A stretch of DNA of 9,093 nucleotides from an uncultured archaeon (GCA_964426185.1 CAYRPF010000101.1:1-9093), one strand, 5' to 3'. Positions 3 to 9,087 are shown, counted from the first letter of the stretch. Numbers and translations: made by a program. The notes: generated from the sequence alone by a model not told the origin.

Positions 3-3000
3 GATTTGGGCATCGATACTATTAAGCAAGCAGAGATCTTTGGACAGATTCGTGAAAAGTGGCAGATACCAGAAAATGTTGAAGTGAATCTTGCAGATTT
101 TCGAACAATTGAAGATATAGTTAGAATTATTAGATCTTTAGAAAAACCATCGAAAAATGCCTTTTCATCAAATTCAGAGGATATTTCACATGATTTCCAA
201 TATTTAGAAAATATTGAGGAAGATTCTGAAAATAATATTTCAATTTTCTCTCTAAAATCAATTTTGCTAGAAAAACCAAGTGAAAGGGAAGAAAATGAAG
301 AAATTTACAAAAGACCTTTAGTTTTAATCGAGTTTAATGACCATTCACATTTGAATGATAAAGTTCAAGAAGTTTTACAAAGCCGACAGATTAAAATAAT
401 ACCCGTAATATTGAATACCGAATATAATAGCGATGAAATCAAGCGATTCACTGAAAATATCAAAGAAAAACATCATGTTGATGCAATTACACTTGGAATT
501 ATTACACCTGCTCTTGAACAAGAGGATTATTTCCAAAGTTCAGAGAGTATATTAATGGTACTTTTCCATTTTCTAAAAGCTTTGAATCCTGCAATTATTC
601 AAAGTTGTTTTATTTTATCAAATGAAACAATCCTTTCTTCAACTGATATTTCTAATCCCGTAAGTTCTGGAATATCGGGTTTTCTTAAATCGCTTGGTAA
701 AGAATTTAAATTCGAATTTCGACATATTTATTTTTATGATGTAAAAGATGCGATTTCTGAATTATTATATCAAGAAACACTTTCAGAAATCATCTATAAT
801 AAAGAAGGTTTGCGTCATACAATAGATCGAGTCAAAATTTTGCCAACTGACAATGCAAAATCAATTAATATAGAAGAGAATGATTTAGTTTTAGTAACTG
901 GAGGTGCAAGAGGGATTACCTTTGAATGTATTGATAAGTGGACGAATAGTGTCCATCCTTCTCTTATTCTGATTGGTCGAACTCCATATGATTCTTCTCT
1001 AGAATCATACTTACACTATACTGAAGAGCAACTAACTAATCTTAAAAAACAAAAGATTCGCTACTTAAAAAAGCATAATCCATCAATTACACCTGTGCAA
1101 GTTCAGAAAGAATGGAAGAAATTCTTGAACCAATTAGAATTGATAAAAAATCTTCGAAAATTACGAAATAAAGGGATCCAAGTAGAATATTATGATTGCG
1201 ATGTCACAGATTATGATAAAATGGCCGAAATCTATGAAAAAATAAAAAATCAGTTTAAAACACCCGTTTCTGTGATTATTCATGGAGCAGGCATGGAAGA
1301 ATCCAAGAATTTTGAGAAAAAATCTGCATCAATGGTAAAGCTTATTCATGATATAAAAGTCAAGGGTTTTTCAAATCTTCTAAAGATCTTTTCTAAAGAT
1401 TTCTTGAAATATTGTGTTGTATTTTCCAGCATCGCTGGAAGATATGGGAATACTGGACAAGTTGATTATGCCTATGCCAATGCTTTTCTCTCAAGGATGG
1501 CATGGAATTCTCATAATTCAATACCGATGTTAGTTATTGATTGGTCAGCTTGGACCGGAGTGGGAATGGCCACACAAGGTTCAACTTTGAAAATTTTAGA
1601 AATGGCTGGAGTAACACCTATTCCTGTGAGAACTGGAACAGAAATTTTCTCGTTTTTGCTTAGAAATGGCTATACTGGAGAATATATTGTTGCGGGAAAC
1701 ATGGGTATATTTGAACCAAACTTAACTATTACCACAAACTTGGAACCTGAAAAGTTTCCCATGATAAGTTCCGTTCAATATCATAAAGGTGATACTTTCG
1801 GTATTCATAAACTTTCTACAAAGCGAGATTTTTATCTCATCGACCACCAAATTGGCTCAAAACCTGTTTTTCCAGGAGTCATGGTGCTGGAATCTTTCGC
1901 TGAATTCTATAATTCCATTTCTCAAGAAGATCAATTTGATATAATTGATGTTGAATATAAAGTACCGTTAAAAATGCTTGAAGGAAAAGAAACAGAGATA
2001 AAAATGCTCTATAACTCTGAATTTGTCAAGGAACAAGAAGATAATTACGGTAAAGTTATTCCATACCTAATTTTTCAATCAATTTCTTATCCTAAGGTAA
2101 TGAAAGGAAAACCTTTAGTTAAAAATCATTTTACCGGAAAAATATTATCATTATCTGGGAATTCTATGTCTTCTTCCCTTTCTATAAAGATTCCTAAGCA
2201 CATTCCATTTATTTCGTTATTCTCTCAAGAAGAAATATATTCCATTTTCTTTCATGGACCACGATTCAAAGTGATTGAAAAATTATTGATTTGGGAGCAA
2301 GATTCGCTTTTAACGAAAATATCATGTAAAAATGAATTATTATTTTCATCCAATCTCCAAAAACCATCAAAAGAACGATTTTTATTCAATCCATTAGGTA
2401 TTGAGAGCCTTTTCCAGACCGCAGCACTGTATGATTTAGTTCGTTATTCCCAATTATCATTACCTTCTAAAATTGGGAAGATTCACAAGATATCAAATGA
2501 AATACCTCAATATGCTTATGTTATCTATCGAGGAAGAGATGGAACTCATAGTTATTTTGATGCCGTTCTTTTAAACTCTGATAAATCACCCATTTTGGAA
2601 CTTTATTCTCTTGGATTGATCCATACTGATTTGCAAATTCCTATTAAGCCCTATATTAAGGAAAAATTAGAAATTTTGGCAGAAATTGGAGGAATTTTTC
2701 CATCCGATTATAATTCCCAATATCACATCTTACCTTTGCTTCAATTGCGACAAAAATTTGAAGAAAATCCTAGCTTATTAGGTCAATATTTAACTGATAA
2801 TGAAATTCAGCAGATTCAAGAAATTAAGAATGAAAAACGACGATATGAACGAATTGCAGGAATTATATGTGCAAAAAATGCCTACTTTAAATTTTTAAAC
2901 AAATCGGAGCAATATTTAGCGATAGAGGTAATAAAGAAAAAAACTGGTCAACCCTTCATGAAATCAAGTAAATCTTTAGAAATTCTTCCAGTGTACCTTT

Positions 3001-3404
3001 CAATAACTCATTCGAATTCATTTGCTTGTGCTGTTGTTAGTAATCATCCAATTGGAATCGACTTGGAAAAAATAAAAGATCGAAATACATCATTTTACAA
3101 AGAAGTATTTACGCCTCTAGAACAACGTTTCATTCAAGAGAATTCTTTATTGGGGACTAAATTCTGGACTATTAAAGAAGCATTTTCAAAAGCAATCGGC
3201 ACTGGTTTATGCATTAATTTAAAACAGCTTGAGATTTCTCATTCTTCTGAAAATAATCACTTTGATCTTACCTATTTAGGAGAAGAAAAGCGTTTACGAG
3301 AACTTGTTGAAAATGTAAAATGGATTTCTAATCAAAATAAAAACTACATTCTAAGCTTATGTGAAATACCCAAAGAAATCTTTAAGAATTTGGAGGAATT
3401 CTAA
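3..3404 (+). CDS. Type I PKS/FAS-like megasynthase, C-terminal part (5'-truncated): ACP - KR - DH - Sfp-type PPTase
   Basis: The frame is open from the window edge; TTG at 6 is an internal Leu of DLGIDTIKQAE (ACP signature, 3-35). KR: TGGARGI (897-917), HGAG (1281-1292), FSS (1422-1430), catalytic Y in GQVDYAYAN (1467-1469), and a PfaA-type helical insert containing ITPVQV. DH: DHQIGSKPVFPG (His 1845-1847), FHGPRF (2250-2267), NPLGIESLFQ (2388-2417). PPTase: LSITHS, GIDLE (3054-3068), FWTIKEAFSK (3162-3191). KS/AT presumably lie upstream of the window. Confidence 0.92.
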   Translation, partial: DLGIDTIKQAEIFGQIREKWQIPENVEVNLADFRTIEDIVRIIRSLEKPSKNAFSSNSEDISHDFQYLENIEEDSENNISIFSLKSILLEKPSEREENEEIYKRPLVLIEFNDHSHLNDKVQEVLQSRQIKIIPVILNTEYNSDEIKRFTENIKEKHHVDAITLGIITPALEQEDYFQSSESILMVLFHFLKALNPAIIQSCFILSNETILSSTDISNPVSSGISGFLKSLGKEFKFEFRHIYFYDVKDAISELLYQETLSEIIYNKEGLRHTIDRVKILPTDNAKSINIEENDLVLVTGGARGITFECIDKWTNSVHPSLILIGRTPYDSSLESYLHYTEEQLTNLKKQKIRYLKKHNPSITPVQVQKEWKKFLNQLELIKNLRKLRNKGIQVEYYDCDVTDYDKMAEIYEKIKNQFKTPVSVIIHGAGMEESKNFEKKSASMVKLIHDIKVKGFSNLLKIFSKDFLKYCVVFSSIAGRYGNTGQVDYAYANAFLSRMAWNSHNSIPMLVIDWSAWTGVGMATQGSTLKILEMAGVTPIPVRTGTEIFSFLLRNGYTGEYIVAGNMGIFEPNLTITTNLEPEKFPMISSVQYHKGDTFGIHKLSTKRDFYLIDHQIGSKPVFPGVMVLESFAEFYNSISQEDQFDIIDVEYKVPLKMLEGKETEIKMLYNSEFVKEQEDNYGKVIPYLIFQSISYPKVMKGKPLVKNHFTGKILSLSGNSMSSSLSIKIPKHIPFISLFSQEEIYSIFFHGPRFKVIEKLLIWEQDSLLTKISCKNELLFSSNLQKPSKERFLFNPLGIESLFQTAALYDLVRYSQLSLPSKIGKIHKISNEIPQYAYVIYRGRDGTHSYFDAVLLNSDKSPILELYSLGLIHTDLQIPIKPYIKEKLEILAEIGGIFPSDYNSQYHILPLLQLRQKFEENPSLLGQYLTDNEIQQIQEIKNEKRRYERIAGIICAKNAYFKFLNKSEQYLAIEVIKKKTGQPFMKSSKSLEILPVYLSITHSNSFACAVVSNHPIGIDLEKIKDRNTSFYKEVFTPLEQRFIQENSLLGTKFWTIKEAFSKAIGTGLCINLKQLEISHSSENNHFDLTYLGEEKRLRELVENVKWISNQNKNYILSLCEIPKEIFKNLEEF
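3392..3397 (+). promoter_or_regulatory. Shine-Dalgarno-like GGAGGA for the hydrolase gene
   Basis: GGAGGA ends 6 nt before ATG 3404, inside the last codons of the PKS; the stop and start overlap as TAATG. Confidence 0.6.
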
Positions 3405-4219
3405 TGAAGAAAATCGTGCACGAAATTATTGTTAGAGAAGAAAAACTCCACGGAATACTTTTTCTTCCTGATCAAACAACTAAGTCTAAGTTAAAAGATG
3501 ATTCTGAGGAAGCATCTAAAGACTCCGAGGTATTTCCATTAGTAATCCACATCAATGGAATGCCCGGGACTTCACCCGAAGAAGATCAAGAACGGTTTGG
3601 GCAGTGCTTCACCCAGAATGGAATTGCACTCTATTGTTTTGATCACCTCGGGGTTCGCCAGAGTTCTGGGGTCTTTACCTACTTTGCGGCTCAGGCAAAT
3701 ATTGAGTATGTAATTGATAATCTGGTTCAACATCCACAGATTGATCCTCTCAAAATTGGTTTACTAGGGGAAAGTTTTGGGGGTGCAATGGCTCTATGTC
3801 ATACTGCCAGAGACAATAGAATTTCTGCAATCGGAGTTAGATCACCAGTTTTTGACACGGAAATAATTCCTACTTATGGATTTTTTGATGATCTATTGAA
3901 AATTTGGACCAGAAACAAACAAATGCGATTTCCTTCAGGTAATGATTTAAAAAATATCTACATCACTCAAACTCGCCACTATAATCCCAAAAATATGATA
4001 AAAAGGATCAGCCAACCATTTTATTTAGTTGCAGGAAAAAAAGATGAACTACTAGGATATCAAGGATTTGAAAACCTTTTCAAAGAAATTCGTTCTTCAG
4101 TCAAATTTTTTGATCTTCATCCTAAAGCCAATCATAATTTTTCAGATAAAAGTGATTTTGAAAAAATGCGTAATACTTTTGTAAAATTTTTTAATAATGT
4201 TTTATTCAAAGAAAGATGA
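3404..4219 (+). CDS. Alpha/beta-fold serine hydrolase (possible thioesterase)
   Basis: Nucleophile elbow GESFG (Ser 3773-3775), acid in AGKKD (Asp 4043-4045), His in ANHNF (4133-4135), FDHLGVRQSSG strand-turn and oxyanion-loop-like INGMPG. Confidence 0.88.
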   Translation: MKKIVHEIIVREEKLHGILFLPDQTTKSKLKDDSEEASKDSEVFPLVIHINGMPGTSPEEDQERFGQCFTQNGIALYCFDHLGVRQSSGVFTYFAAQANIEYVIDNLVQHPQIDPLKIGLLGESFGGAMALCHTARDNRISAIGVRSPVFDTEIIPTYGFFDDLLKIWTRNKQMRFPSGNDLKNIYITQTRHYNPKNMIKRISQPFYLVAGKKDELLGYQGFENLFKEIRSSVKFFDLHPKANHNFSDKSDFEKMRNTFVKFFNNVLFKER

Positions 4220-4318
4220 GCTATATCCGAAGGGATTTGTATCTTTGATCTCTAGATCGAGAAGTCGGCGTTTTATCATAGTTTGATACTTGATCTCCGA
4301 GAGAATAACCCAAGATAC

Positions 4319-5404
4319 TTAGTTCTTCAAGATTTTTTTTAATTCATTTCCAATAATTGTACCCATATCTGAACAAGTTGTTTTTTTTAATTTTTTAGTT
4401 TTATCTACAGATCTTGGATAAATATCAAGAGTTCTAGATTCCTCAAGTGAAGTTATTACCGCTTTTTCAATAAACTGCGCTAATTTTGGATCATTGAATT
4501 TTTCTTCAATCATTAGTTTGCATGACAAAATTGCCCCAATTGGATTAGCTATATTTTTTCCCGCAATATCTGGTGCAGAACCGTGAATTGGTTCGAAAAG
4601 GGCTAAACCATTTGGGTTAATATTAGCACTTGGTACCATACCCAAAGAACCAATCAACATTGCGGCTTCATCGCTAATTATATCACCAAACATATTTTCT
4701 GTAACCACTGTTTGAATTGTTGAAGGCGATCTAATTAACCATTGACAAAATGCATCTACATAGAAGTGTTTCTTTGAGATTTGGGGATATTTCTTGCCTT
4801 GTTCATTGAAAATCTCTCTCCAGAATTCACTGCAGGCCAACATATTAGCTTTATCCACTGAAATAATTTCGGTATGATTTTTACGCACTGCAAATTCAAA
4901 GGCATATTGAATGATACGCTCCACCGCCTTTCGTGAATATACCATTGAATTAACTGCACTGTCTTTATTGACGATGCCTCCTATTCTTGCATATAATCCT
5001 TCCGTATTTTCTCGAATAATTGAGATATCAATGCCATTAGGAAAGAATTCTGGCTTTAAGGGGCAGATATCTTGTAATGGTTCATATTGCTTTACAGGGC
5101 GTAAATTTACATAAAGATCGAATCCTTGTCTCATCTTTAAAATTGCAGATTCTGCTACTCCTGCTGGTAAATCTGGGACCCCTATAGCTCCAAAAAGGAT
5201 AGCATCACTTGATTTCATCAAATTAAATGATTTTTCTGGGAGATTCGTGCCAGTCTGTTTGTAAACTTCTCCTCCCAAGGGCGTTTCAATTAAATTGAAA
5301 TCATAATTGGTATATTGGCCAATAATTTTGAGAATTTTCACACCTTCGTTGATAACCTCAGGACCTATACCATCCCCTTTTGCTATTGCGATGGTTTTTT
5401 CCAT
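4319..5404 (-). CDS. leuB: 3-isopropylmalate dehydrogenase (isocitrate/isopropylmalate dehydrogenase family)
   Basis: GDGIGPEV, NLRPVK, IRENTEGLY, VDKAN, ENMFGDIISD and FEPIHGSAPDIAGKNIANP motifs. The substrate-loop segment AESAILKMR resembles IPMDH, and Asp in HGSAPD suggests NAD use. The family is certain; the exact substrate is less so. Confidence 0.8.
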   Translation of the reverse strand: MEKTIAIAKGDGIGPEVINEGVKILKIIGQYTNYDFNLIETPLGGEVYKQTGTNLPEKSFNLMKSSDAILFGAIGVPDLPAGVAESAILKMRQGFDLYVNLRPVKQYEPLQDICPLKPEFFPNGIDISIIRENTEGLYARIGGIVNKDSAVNSMVYSRKAVERIIQYAFEFAVRKNHTEIISVDKANMLACSEFWREIFNEQGKKYPQISKKHFYVDAFCQWLIRSPSTIQTVVTENMFGDIISDEAAMLIGSLGMVPSANINPNGLALFEPIHGSAPDIAGKNIANPIGAILSCKLMIEEKFNDPKLAQFIEKAVITSLEESRTLDIYPRSVDKTKKLKKTTCSDMGTIIGNELKKILKN

Positions 5405-5435
5405 TTATAGTCTCAAGATATAATCTGTGGATTGG

Positions 5436-5450
5436 AATTAATACTTTTTC
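5436..5450 (-). promoter_or_regulatory. Putative archaeal BRE-TATA promoter of the leuB-like gene
   Basis: The minus strand reads GAAAAAG-TATTAATT, with the TATA-like element 34-39 nt upstream of ATG 5404; no SD is visible. Confidence 0.45.
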
Positions 5451-5455
5451 CCCAT

Positions 5456-5950
5456 TTATTCCTTAGAATTTTGCATAATACTTATTAATTCTTGATCTTG
5501 GAATACATTATCTCCAGGTTTTGGAAATATTTTAGTAATTTTACCTGATATTGGCGCAAGAATGCGGTTACGCATCTTCATTGCTTCCAAAATTAGAAGT
5601 TCTTGCCCTTTTTTAACGATGTCTTGTTCTTTTACTAGTATTTGAAAAATTTTTCCTGGAATTGGAGCTTTCACATTAGAATTTTTAGGGAGATTGGAGT
5701 TTATTATCGAATTTTCCACTTCAATATAGGGTCTAATATTAATATCCACTTCTTCTCCTTCAAGATAAAATTTTCCATTTATTTTTTCTAAAATAAAGGA
5801 ATATTTCCCAAATGTTACTTTAAATCGATTTTCTGCTTGTTGAACCACTTTAGGGGAAAATACATAGCCATCTATTTGAATTTGTTGATTATCCAGGAGT
5901 TCTATGATAAATTCTCTTCCATGATAAATTACTTTCTTTTTTTTAACCAA
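5456..5950 (-). CDS. accB: Biotin carboxyl carrier protein of an acyl-CoA carboxylase
   Basis: EAMKM biotinylation motif (5573-5587, Lys 5576-5578), VKAPIPGKI, and a ~90-aa N-terminal extension. TTG start with AAGGAG (5968-5963) 12 nt upstream; the start is somewhat uncertain. Confidence 0.9.
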   Translation of the reverse strand: MVKKKKVIYHGREFIIELLDNQQIQIDGYVFSPKVVQQAENRFKVTFGKYSFILEKINGKFYLEGEEVDINIRPYIEVENSIINSNLPKNSNVKAPIPGKIFQILVKEQDIVKKGQELLILEAMKMRNRILAPISGKITKIFPKPGDNVFQDQELISIMQNSKE

Positions 5951-5992
5951 TACAGGTTCGCGCTCCTTAAAATTAAAATAACCCTTGAGAAG

Positions 5993-7486
5993 TTACCGTA
6001 CTTGTTCTCTCCGTGCTGATTCTCTCCATAAATTTCGAGTTGGCCGAGTTTGTATTTCGGTAACGCTTTTTGTAGGCGTCAACTTGAATAATTCCATCAC
6101 TTGGGATATTGCTGCAATTTTCATATATTCGTAATTTCTGAGAATCTTGGCAATATTTATTTGATTTAAAAATTCGGTAGAAATCGTCCAACGTTTGTAT
6201 TCTCTAGTTTCAATAATTGCTTGATGTAGTTCTAGGTTTGTCTTTAAACCAGAAATTGTTAATTCTCTAAGGGCTGTACGGGCTTGAATAATTGCTTGAT
6301 CTCGTGTTCGAGCCCAAACAATTAGCTTTCCAATTAGAGAATCAAAATTATTGGGAATAACATAATTTGGGTATATAAATGTGTCAAATCTGACATTAGA
6401 ACCACCTGGGATAATAACTTGAGTTATTTTTCCACTTTGAGGGAGATTTTGGGTGTGTGGATCTTCAGCATTAATTCGAAATTCGATAGCATGACCGCTA
6501 AATCGAATGTCTTTTTGGACATAAGTTAAAGGTTGACCTGCGGCCACTCTGAGCTGTTCTACCACTAGATCAATACCAGTGATCATTTCTGTAACAGGAT
6601 GCTCGACTTGAATGCGTGGATTTACTTCATTGAAATAAATTTTGCCATTTTTCCATAAAAATTCCGCCGTTCCTGCATTTACATATCCAAGATTCTTTGC
6701 TAATTCACAAACTTTTATTCCCAGCTGATTGATTTCATCCCGAGGGAGAAAAGAGGGTGCTTCTTCTATTAATTTTTGATTAGCGCGCTGAATTGAGCAT
6801 TCTCGATCTCCTAAATGAATAACATTTCCATGATTGTCTCCAATGAATTGGATCTCAATGTGACGGGGATTTTCGATAAATTTTTCAATAAATATCTCTT
6901 TTCGACCGAAAAATTGTTCTGAAATTGCCTGACATCCTTCAAATGCAGATTCCAAGGTAGATTGTTCATTAACTCTTTCCATTCCTCGGCCTCCGCCTCC
7001 AAAAGCAGCTTTAATTATAATTGGATAGCCTATTTGTTCTGCTATCTCATGTGCTTCTTCCAAAGTTGTGATATATCCTGAAGATCCTGGCACAGTAGGC
7101 AGACCTACTTGAGCTGCGATTGTTTTTGCTTTAATTTTATCTCCCAGATAATCGATAATTTCTGATTTTGGACCAATTAATACTTTCCCGTTCTCTTCAA
7201 CTCTGCGTGCAAAATCCGCATTTTCTGATAAAAACCCATATCCAGGGTGAATTGCATCTGCATTAGACTTTTCAAGAATTTCTAAGATTTTTGGAATGTT
7301 AAGATATGTTTCTTGGACAGTTCCCGAACCTAATGAATAACATTCATCTGCTAATTTGACATGTAAAGAATATTGATCTTCTGTAGAAAATACAGCAATA
7401 GCATAAATTCCTTGCAAACGACAAGCTCGAATAATTCGAACCGCAATCTCACCACGGTTGGCAATAAGTACAGATTGAAGAGTCAT
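5993..7486 (-). CDS. accC: Biotin carboxylase subunit (acetyl/propionyl-CoA carboxylase type)
   Basis: ANRGEIA, HPGYGFLSENA, KAAFGGGGRGM, RHIEIQ, RECSIQR, EVNPRIQVEHPVTE and EFRINAED motifs; adjacent to a stand-alone BCCP. Confidence 0.93.
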   Translation of the reverse strand: MTLQSVLIANRGEIAVRIIRACRLQGIYAIAVFSTEDQYSLHVKLADECYSLGSGTVQETYLNIPKILEILEKSNADAIHPGYGFLSENADFARRVEENGKVLIGPKSEIIDYLGDKIKAKTIAAQVGLPTVPGSSGYITTLEEAHEIAEQIGYPIIIKAAFGGGGRGMERVNEQSTLESAFEGCQAISEQFFGRKEIFIEKFIENPRHIEIQFIGDNHGNVIHLGDRECSIQRANQKLIEEAPSFLPRDEINQLGIKVCELAKNLGYVNAGTAEFLWKNGKIYFNEVNPRIQVEHPVTEMITGIDLVVEQLRVAAGQPLTYVQKDIRFSGHAIEFRINAEDPHTQNLPQSGKITQVIIPGGSNVRFDTFIYPNYVIPNNFDSLIGKLIVWARTRDQAIIQARTALRELTISGLKTNLELHQAIIETREYKRWTISTEFLNQINIAKILRNYEYMKIAAISQVMELFKLTPTKSVTEIQTRPTRNLWRESARREQVR

Positions 7487-7619: not shown

Positions 7620-7820
7620 TTAATCAGATACATCTAATTCAAAGAGTTGTGAAACTGGAATATCAAAAAATTTAGCAATTTTCAATGCTAAAATAAGGTT
7701 TGGTTTTTTTGTTCCATTTTCAATATAGGAGATCATTTGACGGGATACCCCTACTGCTTCAGCAAGTTCCTGTTGTGAAAGATGGAAATTTTCTCTGTAT
7801 TCACGCACCCTATTCTTCAT
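7620..7820 (-). CDS. XRE-family (cro/C1-type HTH) transcriptional regulator, 66 aa, CylR2-like
   Basis: MKNRVREYR..LSQQELAEAVGVSRQMISYIENG..PNLILALKIAKFF..P..QLF is a complete small XRE. I moved the start from 7910 to ATG 7820, which has AAGGA at 7836-7832 and AATATAAA at 7856-7849 upstream. Confidence 0.9.
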   Translation of the reverse strand: MKNRVREYRENFHLSQQELAEAVGVSRQMISYIENGTKKPNLILALKIAKFFDIPVSQLFELDVSD

Positions 7821-7864
7821 TATCTTAGATATCCTTGAATTATGCTGCTTTATATTCATGTAGT

Positions 7865-7880
7865 GAAAAACAGAAAAAAG
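7865..7880 (-). terminator. Possible oligo-T (archaeal-type) terminator after the PH-XRE gene
   Basis: The minus strand reads CTTTTTTCTGTTTTTC starting ~14 nt after the TGA; I saw no GC hairpin. Confidence 0.35.
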
Positions 7881-7893
7881 ATAGTTCTGCTTA

Positions 7894-8742
7894 TCAATCT
7901 GTGAGTTCAAATAATTCTTCTATTGGAACTTTGAATGTATGTGCTATTTTCATAGCCAGAGTTAAAGAAGGCACGTATTCTCCTGATTCCAAATATTGAA
8001 TTGTGCTTTCTGAGACACCAATTTTATCGGCCAATTGAGGGATTGTAATTCCTTCTTTTTCTCGTAATAATCGAATCTTGGTTCTTATTTGATCTTTCTC
8101 CCGCATTTTTGATAGAAAATAGGCAATAAACTCATCAAATACCACATTGTTATCAGAAAATACATTGGACGAAACAGATTTTGGGATATTTTGTGTGTAT
8201 TTATGCACTAATTGATTCATTTTTTCCTCAATAATTGACGGATTACGAACTCCCGGGATATATCCTTCTGGACGAATACTTCCTTTTTGAGCACTTGCTG
8301 CAGCAGCACTTGAACCTGCAGTTTCGATTTTTATTTTATAAATTTTGAGTATTCGATCTCTAATGTTCTGGTAGATTGCCACGTTTTGAATGCGTGAATA
8401 AGGTATGGTAGTCTTAGTTTTAGTTAAAACACCATATCTAATTATAATAAACTTATCTGTAAATTCATATGAAAACGCTTTTACATATAATACTGAGAAT
8501 ATAAGGGTTAATCCAATGATGAGAACAGTAACTCCAATCATTACCCAGAATATGACAATCCAAAGTAATCCTTCATTTAAATTACTATTCTCATCTCTGG
8601 CGATCAGTATAATCAACCATCCAATTCCGTAGATAATCAAATCAACTAATAAAGTGCCTATTATACTTCCAATTACTTCATGTTTGACAAATGCTGGGTC
8701 AATACCATGAATATCTTCATGTTCCGATGTTGTCGGTTTCAT
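7894..8742 (-). CDS. Membrane protein: 2 TM helices + bacterial PH domain (bPH_2/YdbS-like) + C-terminal XRE HTH
   Basis: Hydrophobic segments at aa ~23-48 and ~59-87. YEFTDKFIIIRYGVLTKTKTTIPYSRIQNV..Q..DRIL....IKIETAG is the bPH_2 pattern. aa ~220-282 (nt 8085-7897) form an XRE domain. Confidence 0.88.
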   Translation of the reverse strand: MKPTTSEHEDIHGIDPAFVKHEVIGSIIGTLLVDLIIYGIGWLIILIARDENSNLNEGLLWIVIFWVMIGVTVLIIGLTLIFSVLYVKAFSYEFTDKFIIIRYGVLTKTKTTIPYSRIQNVAIYQNIRDRILKIYKIKIETAGSSAAAASAQKGSIRPEGYIPGVRNPSIIEEKMNQLVHKYTQNIPKSVSSNVFSDNNVVFDEFIAYFLSKMREKDQIRTKIRLLREKEGITIPQLADKIGVSESTIQYLESGEYVPSLTLAMKIAHTFKVPIEELFELTD

Positions 8743-8807
8743 TTTCTTTGATTTTCACTTCTTTTTTTCATAGCTTCTATTGGAGCAAAATAGCAATCAA
8801 AATTTTC

Positions 8808-8822
8808 GCAACCAATAGTTGC
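8808..8822. promoter_or_regulatory. Operator-like inverted repeat 1, GCAAC-N5-GTTGC
   Basis: GCAAC CAATA GTTGC read directly from the sequence; it matches the repeat at 8859-8873. Confidence 0.7.
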
Positions 8823-8845
8823 ACAAGAAAAATATAGGTTTGAAG

Positions 8846-8858
8846 TATAAAAAGCTTT
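8846..8858 (-). promoter_or_regulatory. Putative archaeal BRE-TATA promoter of the PH-XRE gene
   Basis: The minus strand reads AAAGC-TTTTTATA, lying between the two inverted repeats; the predicted TSS is near 8820-8826. Confidence 0.55.
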
Positions 8859-8874
8859 GCAACCAGCGGTTGCA
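8858..8874. promoter_or_regulatory. Operator-like inverted repeat 2, TGCAACC-N3-GGTTGCA
   Basis: Perfect 7-3-7 inverted repeat, GC-rich against an AT-rich intergenic background; same core as 8808-8822. Confidence 0.75.
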
Positions 8875-9051
8875 TTTTATGGTTTCAAATTTCAACACAA
8901 ATTTTTAAACACAAATAGATATCTTAAATTAAGGAAGGCGGAAATAATGATTTGGCACTGGCTTTCTACACAAGATCACACCTCAGTTATAAGGTACAAT
9001 TTAACAGGATTTTCATCAACAACTAGATGGCTTTGCCCAATGAGATTTTAA

Positions 9052-9087
9052 TTTTATTTAATATTATCACTGCCGAATTAAATAAAA
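9052..9087. repeat. 11-bp AT-only inverted repeat with 14-nt spacer
   Basis: TTTTATTTAAT (9052-9062) and ATTAAATAAAA (9077-9087) are exact reverse complements. Confidence 0.45.

Follow-up and report, generated by a model that had tools for sequence, protein, structure and literature searches.

The closest described counterpart of the locus studied here is the CylR1/CylR2 pair of Enterococcus faecalis, which regulates cytolysin. In it, the repressor CylR2 requires the membrane protein CylR1, a small protein with three predicted transmembrane (TM) helices and no PH or HTH domain, and the pair has already been put forward as a two-component system that works without a phosphorelay (PMC3709268). 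CylR2 is a 66-aa XRE protein with the signature SQ...VSRQTI...PSL...LALKIA...F; its target is an inverted repeat in the promoter region, its gene directly follows that of the membrane protein, and the pair signals with no kinase (PMC3709268). Transmembrane transcription regulators (TTRs), such as ToxR, CadC, BcrR and, in Sulfolobus, ArnR/ArnR1, likewise combine TM helices and a DNA-binding-type domain in one polypeptide and use no kinase (PMC10269533, PMC6396743). YdbS-type bPH_2 proteins (YdbS/YdbT of B. subtilis; DdE/DdF) consist of a 2-TM hairpin and a single cytoplasmic bPH_2 domain, and relatives are often encoded beside ABC transporter genes; in Enterococcus, the YdbS/YdbT-like PH proteins DdE and DdF are required for leaderless-bacteriocin peptide export beside such a transporter (PMC8657885). 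With kinase-free membrane regulation already known from the widespread TTRs (PMC10269533) and from CylR1/CylR2 (PMC3709268), the preliminary description of the present locus went too far in presenting a kinase-free transmembrane circuit as undescribed; its novelty lies in a bPH_2 partner that carries an apparently blind copy of the repressor's own HTH. The logic proposed here for that copy is the one of SinI/SinR and SlrR of Bacillus and of Id/bHLH, where a relative without a working DNA head takes a regulator off the DNA. SinI, however, contacts the C-terminal domain of SinR, not its HTH, and none of SinI, SlrR and Id is membrane-anchored, unlike the tethered HTH proposed here.

The window, that is, the whole stretch of DNA analysed, is a complete contig of 9093 bp (C101) from a Lokiarchaeia (Harpocratesius-like) genome of 3.26 Mb and 92% completeness. 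Its minus strand carries a gene for a fused membrane protein of 282 aa (7894 to 8742, stop codon included), followed by a gene for a small soluble XRE protein. As delineated from its ORF, Pfam and an AF2 model, the fused protein comprises two TM helices, a bPH_2 domain, a linker and a non-canonical HTH_3 domain, with residues 88-146 matching Pfam bPH_2 (PF03703; E 4.5e-18, 65.7 bits against a cut-off of 22) and residues 223-277 matching HTH_3 (PF01381; E 2.9e-14, 53.3 bits against a cut-off of 23). In the AF2 model, obtained with 36 homologues as input (pLDDT 77.9), the TM helices span residues 17-50 and 57-89, and residues 91-184 fold into a PH sandwich that includes its C-terminal helix; a linker helix (198-213) then leads to a five-helix HTH (223-277). 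The modelled TM hairpin (8476 to 8694, minus strand) encloses a short acidic outer loop, approximately RDENSN, of only ~6-10 residues, which, together with the basic residues after TM2, points to an N-in/C-in topology. The bacterial-type PH domain, predicted to be cytoplasmic (residues 91-184; 8191 to 8472, minus strand), is recognized both by Pfam PF03703 and by Foldseek, whose matches are the bacterial PH structures 3dcx and 3hsa; its loop ETAGSSAAAASAQKGxIRPEGYIPG is conserved, and E140-G143, E159 and P163 are invariant in the alignment of fused homologues (A1). After a linker of ~40 residues (185-222) comes the tethered HTH (residues 223-277; 7912 to 8076, minus strand), assigned from Pfam HTH_3 and structure matches to a CylR2-like fold, in which, as entropy and charge indicate, the base-reading residues are replaced (TIPQLA, SESTI). 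The top solved structures found by Foldseek for the model of this domain are DR_2454 (9k3w) and CylR2 (1utx), with TM-scores of 0.89-0.92 and 39-44% identity (0.89-0.90 and 39% for CylR2).

Set against the known systems, the fused protein has the predicted TM region and the predicted DNA-binding domain that define a TTR (PMC10269533), but its HTH is C-terminal, behind bPH_2, and lacks the reading residues, which the soluble paralogue has. While YdbS-type proteins stop after the PH domain, this one continues for ~100 extra residues with the linker helix and HTH_3. In comparison with CylR1, considered here by its description, the membrane protein differs in consisting of two TM helices, bPH_2 and a degenerate copy of the repressor's HTH; the host differs as well, being an Asgard archaeon with a TATA/BRE promoter and no lantibiotic operon attached.

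The soluble XRE gene (7620 to 7820, minus strand; ATG at 7820, stop codon 7620-7622) encodes 66 aa with a single HTH and the canonical SQ...SRQ(M/T) residues. Pfam assigns it to HTH_3 (E 3.2e-18; 66 bits against a cut-off of 23), the single sequence matches CylR2 (1utx) with E 4.5e-08, its top match being DR_2454 (9k3w), and a profile of the partner proteins matches CylR2 with E 2.6e-20. For both HTHs, CylR2 thus ranks first or second among the solved matches, and in its size, single HTH and nearest solved structures the soluble protein is a CylR2-like small XRE, as the preliminary description had it. Matches to the NCBIfam models for type II antitoxins and other named XRE families (HipB, HigA, MqsA, RstR, SlrR, aMBF1) all fall far under the curated cut-offs (e.g., 44 versus 71.65 bits), and PADLOC returned generic HTH matches alone, with no specific family. 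An identity as toxin-antitoxin component or phage repressor is rejected, there being no toxin-like or mobile-element gene and the synteny being chromosomal and conserved.

Alignment of the two HTHs by BLASTP is ungapped, with 25 of 62 residues identical (E 1e-15) and 16 of the 25 identities in the C-terminal half. An earlier count of 25/61, its C-terminal concentration of identities and the motifs read from the two copies (SQQELA/SRQMI in the soluble one, TIPQLA/SESTI in the fused one) are all borne out. Because both domains share the same top solved structures and form clean module clades in the HTH tree, their likeness goes beyond that of generic HTH_3 domains, supporting their being paralogues. 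In this tree, built from the module HTHs of many genomes, fused and partner domains split cleanly clade by clade, and the partner of the window's clade adjoins the fused HTHs with canonical reading residues (support 92), a position compatible with an origin by duplication.

The nearest relatives of the fused protein belong to Candidatus Harpocratesius (73-77% identity), Lokiarchaeum ossiferum, Promethearchaeum syntrophicum and many Promethearchaeota MAGs. In total, 243 homologues with its architecture were found, every source name given being an Asgard lineage, and bPH_2 and HTH_3 are both present in all of the 120 listed except P0039, which has bPH_2 only. In a protein-language Atlas, one cluster alone, an archaeal one, has both domains, its other neighbours having bPH_2 alone. 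The search for this domain combination therefore located it in Asgard archaea only, with no trace outside them among the homologues listed or in the Atlas, and a literature search on Asgard, PH domain and HTH found nothing describing a bPH_2 + HTH architecture. Within a 201-genome sample of the phylum, strong matches occur in the window's own family and in its sister family; a scan with one genome per species recovered 345 stretches that encode a relative of the fused protein.

Pairing with an adjacent small XRE, the conservation of which had been put forward as a check, is strongly maintained. A same-strand soluble XRE lies 3' of the fused gene in 23/25 loci from related genomes, and the pairing recurs in nearly all of 80 species loci, usually with a spacing of 40-75 nt. 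Among one-per-species loci, 64 of the 65 fused genes with a non-canonical HTH have a soluble XRE behind them, counting as partnered L116 and L119, where a six-frame scan places the partner ORF across the last 75 nt of the fused gene; the sole unpartnered one (L080) has the head TQ...SRTT. On the contrary, the five assessable fused genes with a canonical xQ...[ST]RQT head (L061, L062, L068, L072 and L124, this last being the second copy of L. ossiferum, canonical and unpartnered) have no HTH gene on either strand within ~3.5 kb.

Partners in the window's clade (Harpocratesius, Lokiarchaeum, Promethearchaeum) have 64-69 aa and a single HTH. Those of a large sister clade have ~135 aa and carry, besides a canonical HTH, another domain recognised by profile comparison as a degenerate HTH (hhalign probability 84%, E 7e-06), which HTH_26 matches in 8 of 26 members. 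This C-terminal half (L096:4567-4779 and its equivalents in ~54 partners) is of the degenerate Cro/C1 type without reading residues, and is missing from the window's partner. Some further variants of the locus were observed. At L091:3410-5725, a tandem pair of fused bPH-HTH genes precedes a single soluble partner. At L128:3293-4105, L129 and L130, a bPH gene without HTH is followed by a 50-54-aa remnant that starts like the fused linker and ends like the partner C-terminus, which looks like the outcome of one deletion that took out both the tethered HTH and the reading HTH of the partner. In the sister clade, the start of the partner gene (L065:4370, L066:4371, L073:1362, L078:4378, L081:2337, L096:4363 and others), 5-7 nt behind a Shine-Dalgarno-like GGTGAG, is conserved in position and reads ATG, TTG, GTG and very often CTG, or TTA in two loci, and no canonical start codon occurs nearby in frame; such starts suggest a weak, non-canonical initiation that would keep the soluble repressor scarce.

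In HTHs of the 434 type, DNA is contacted by a Gln at the start of helix 2 and by S-R-Q at the start of helix 3. The corresponding Q16, S26, R27 and Q28 are invariant in the partner (62/62 sequences), as is R9 in the partner alignment, while fused HTHs of the large clade carry A/V/M at Q16, Pro at S26 and I/L/V/K at R27, and those of the window's clade E/R/C at R27. Mean entropy over five reading positions is 1.64 for the fused HTH versus 0.08 for the partner in the large clade and 1.25 versus 0.20 in the window's clade, whereas over the remaining positions it is the fused copy that shows the lower values (0.74 versus 1.03 and 0.76 versus 0.88, respectively). Five random columns matched this contrast in 0 and 10 of 20000 draws for the two clades, figures to be read in the light of the five positions having been taken from textbook 434-type contacts but picked after the pattern had been seen. 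In the window, helix 3 and the loop after it carry a net charge of -3 in the fused HTH versus +2 in the soluble XRE. These features support the fused copy being the one that has lost the base-reading residues and the soluble copy the one that keeps them. Counting against the module proposed below, the fused HTH of the Promethearchaeum clade is nearly canonical (SQ...SRTT) despite the presence of a partner. Moreover, the fused recognition helix is well conserved inside each clade (e.g., PIQTINYLEEG), which equally fits a new DNA specificity, and the second, degenerate HTH-like domain of the sister-clade partner could serve dimerisation without the tethered HTH. The shortness of the outer loop counts on the same side. 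In a PH-domain tree, the unpartnered canonical lineages fall in the unresolved centre between both partnered clades, with two state changes for HTH type and four for partner presence as first scored (fewer with L116 and L119 corrected); the association between a non-canonical HTH and a partner thus reflects very few events and allows no formal test, an independent-pairs comparison of partner presence with canonical HTH yielding three pairs only, with no power.

The region upstream of the fused gene reads, on the minus strand, TGCAACCGCTGGTTGCA - AAGC - TTTTTATA - 22 nt - TGCAACTATTGGTTGCG - 64 nt - ATG. Candidate operator O1 (TGCAACCAGCGGTTGCA, 8858 to 8874) is a perfect 7-3-7 palindrome abutting the BRE/TATA, and candidate operator O2 (CGCAACCAATAGTTGCA, 8807 to 8823), at 51 bp from O1, covers the expected transcription start. 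Between them lies a TATA box (TTTTTATA in minus-strand reading, 8846 to 8853), part of a block conserved with respect to locus L054, which probably acts as the promoter. A further conserved block, AAAAAAGAAGTGAA (8754 to 8767, minus strand), situated 12 nt before the ATG and aligned with L054, is Shine-Dalgarno-like and may function as such. Both operators, the TATA box and this block stand out as conserved islands in the comparison with Harpocratesius repetitus, the flanks being diverged. The repeats noticed earlier at 8808-8874 are real, and O1 and O2 are the sole copies of TGCAAC-N5-GTTGCA in the 3.26 Mb genome; a whole-genome regulon search with this pattern gave no further copy, and the five matches at two mismatches look like chance. 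These genome-unique twin palindromes would take here the place of the inverted repeat bound by CylR2. As for other features of this region, a 34-codon ORF (8948-9052, plus strand) follows a GGAAGGCGGA motif upstream of the operators; H. repetitus has instead a divergent methyltransferase-like gene ~180 bp upstream, and the window contig stops at 9093, cutting off any divergent gene.

Almost all related loci, partnered or not, have two palindromes of the same family beside a TTTAAATA-type box, with examples such as TGTCAAC-N4-GTTGACA and ATGTnAA-N6-TTnACAT. No second conserved motif was found in these promoters, each showing one palindrome type in two near-identical symmetric copies, which fits a single, SRQT-type reading head and is weak evidence against a tethered head with a site of its own. 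Half-sites are TGCAACC with SRQM in the two Harpocratesius-type loci, and GTCAAC or GTCAAT with SRQT in L056-L060; L055 has SRQT but CGCAACT half-sites. Given that the unpartnered canonical fused proteins still have twin palindromes of the same family, the SRQT-type head, whether fused or free, is the likely reader of the operator.

The rest of the window (3-7486) is occupied by a PKS/FAS-like megasynthase, an alpha/beta hydrolase, an IPMDH-like gene, BCCP and biotin carboxylase; of these, the last three have syntenic counterparts in H. repetitus (73-80% identity). Behind the pair in Harpocratesius come the genes for biotin carboxylase, BCCP and the IPMDH-like protein, an adjacency that is genus-specific (H. 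repetitus alone), and the 133-nt gap before the carboxylase gene contains its own TATA-like TTTAAATA and no operator. A role of the pair as dedicated regulator of the neighbouring lipid/PKS cluster is rejected on account of both observations. In the sister clade, 9 of 21 loci have an ABC ATPase just downstream together with a 537-aa protein without Pfam family, a putative permease for which the sister-clade query gave no match in the window's genome (92% complete). In P. syntrophicum MK-D1 (L057:4797-7848) and L. ossiferum (L055:4786-7808), the pair precedes a ~700-aa beta-lactamase-family (PF00144) protein and an ABC ATPase. Considering the link of bPH proteins with ABC transporters in Enterococcus peptide export, the signal might reasonably be guessed to be a compound that acts on membranes or is exported, though this is no more than a guess.

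Considering all these features, the gene pair is tentatively read as a signalling module of two genes that is conserved in Loki-type Asgard archaea and regulates itself, formed by a soluble repressor and a tethered, non-reading paralogue that interact, a reading about which we are slightly more doubtful than convinced. The analysis shows the anatomy, the conserved pairing, the genome-unique twin palindromes, the split of reading residues between the copies and the likeness to CylR2; from these we infer which protein occupies the operators, that a heterodimer forms, in which direction control runs and where the signal acts, as follows. The 66-aa XRE repressor would bind the two 17-bp palindromes around the TATA box and the expected start, shutting off its own operon. 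The tethered HTH, with its fold and a conserved non-DNA surface kept and its base-reading residues lost, would have become a protein-interaction module, either forming a non-productive heterodimer with the soluble repressor or keeping it membrane-bound; the quantity of free repressor reaching the operators would thereby depend on the state of the TM/bPH part. Paralogues derived from a homodimer often keep cross-binding, and a partner that lacks the reading head then becomes a dominant negative, in the manner of Id towards bHLH factors; such a rule favours a heterodimer between the tethered HTH and the XRE. Complex prediction for fused residues 86-282 with the soluble XRE, an alignment being supplied for each protein, scored 0.44 versus 0.00 for the best of three controls, with contacts agreeing by at least 94% between runs and a partner pLDDT of at least 78. 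The mark for such scores is passed by 58/80 solved complexes and 2/110 mismatched pairs, and passing scores up to 0.60 comprise just 7 of the 80 solved complexes and both passing mismatches; the 0.44 lends weak support to contact, and the pass may stem from the likeness to solved CylR2 homodimers. Accordingly, of the decoy envisaged in the preliminary description, the loss of reading residues stands (entropy, net charge of -3 versus +2), but capture of the repressor leans on inference and on this weak prediction (0.44 versus 0.00). In its most specific form, with the membrane pseudo-HTH as a switchable decoy that titrates the soluble paralogue by heterodimerisation through the old CylR2-type dimer face upon a bPH/TM signal, the proposal is possible although doubtful.

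Other explanations start from the same observations. The unpartnered canonical relatives with twin operators, having no other HTH gene nearby, must act as transmembrane regulators, and as judged from their domains they would fit the TTR class fully. By extension, the fused protein might be a functional transmembrane transcription regulator like ToxR, CadC, BcrR or ArnR that binds the same palindromes or a diverged site, with the soluble XRE competing or cooperating on DNA and no sequestration. Archaea widely possess TTRs (PMC10269533), strong purifying selection acts on the fused HTH, which keeps T29, Y32 and G36 of the recognition helix, and in the large clade Q28 is retained in 41/54 fused HTHs, where a hydrophobic residue 27 could touch thymine methyl groups. 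This extension is nonetheless rather unlikely, considering that the window's fused HTH has E at R27, no Q16 and a DNA-facing net charge of -3, that variability peaks at the reading positions while the rest of the domain is highly conserved, and that each promoter shows one palindrome type, with no second conserved motif found for a diverged head.

It is also conceivable, if unlikely, that the two proteins do not touch, the XRE being a plain autorepressor and the tethered HTH an intramolecular or oligomerisation element of a bPH protein working elsewhere, for instance with an ABC exporter as DdE/DdF do. An ABC ATPase indeed lies downstream of the pair in many relatives, including the 9/21 sister-clade loci and, after the beta-lactamase-family protein, P. 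syntrophicum and L. ossiferum; peptide export beside an ABC transporter in Enterococcus depends on bPH proteins (PMC8657885), and the conserved patches specific to the fused HTH (LAEKVGV, CKIEDLFK) may equally be homomeric contacts. ABC genes are, however, absent beside the pair in the window and in H. repetitus, and a lack of contact leaves unexplained why reading residues persist in the fused HTH only in the absence of a soluble copy, as well as the single-deletion remnant of L128-L130, which joins fused linker to partner tail, tethered HTH and partner being lost together. Finally, regulated proteolysis might free the tethered HTH, which would then act in the cytoplasm, alone or with the soluble XRE, following an SREBP- or RsgI-like logic. 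The AF2 model does show residues 145-154 at pLDDT <50 and the linker, between PH core and HTH, in the 50s-60s, and the loop ETAG...RPEGYIPG is nearly invariant; that loop, however, is part of the bPH domain, the neighbourhood has no conserved protease gene or domain and nothing else indicates cleavage, all of which makes this route highly improbable.

Asgard archaea are the closest prokaryotic relatives of eukaryotes and, to our knowledge, almost nothing is known about their membrane-to-gene signalling. The module occurs in dozens of Loki-type species, among them the two that are in culture, P. syntrophicum MK-D1 and L. ossiferum, which makes the proposal testable, and it may also illuminate the mechanism of CylR1/CylR2. 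The family includes what can be regarded as before and after forms, namely a single-protein regulator with a reading HTH and a split form with a free reading head and an apparently blind tethered head, and it is thus suited to study how a one-component regulator becomes a two-protein switch. If the decoy reading were true, these archaea would possess a kinase-free and protease-free transmembrane signalling device, born within the Asgard lineage through duplication of a one-component regulator and a split of its functions.
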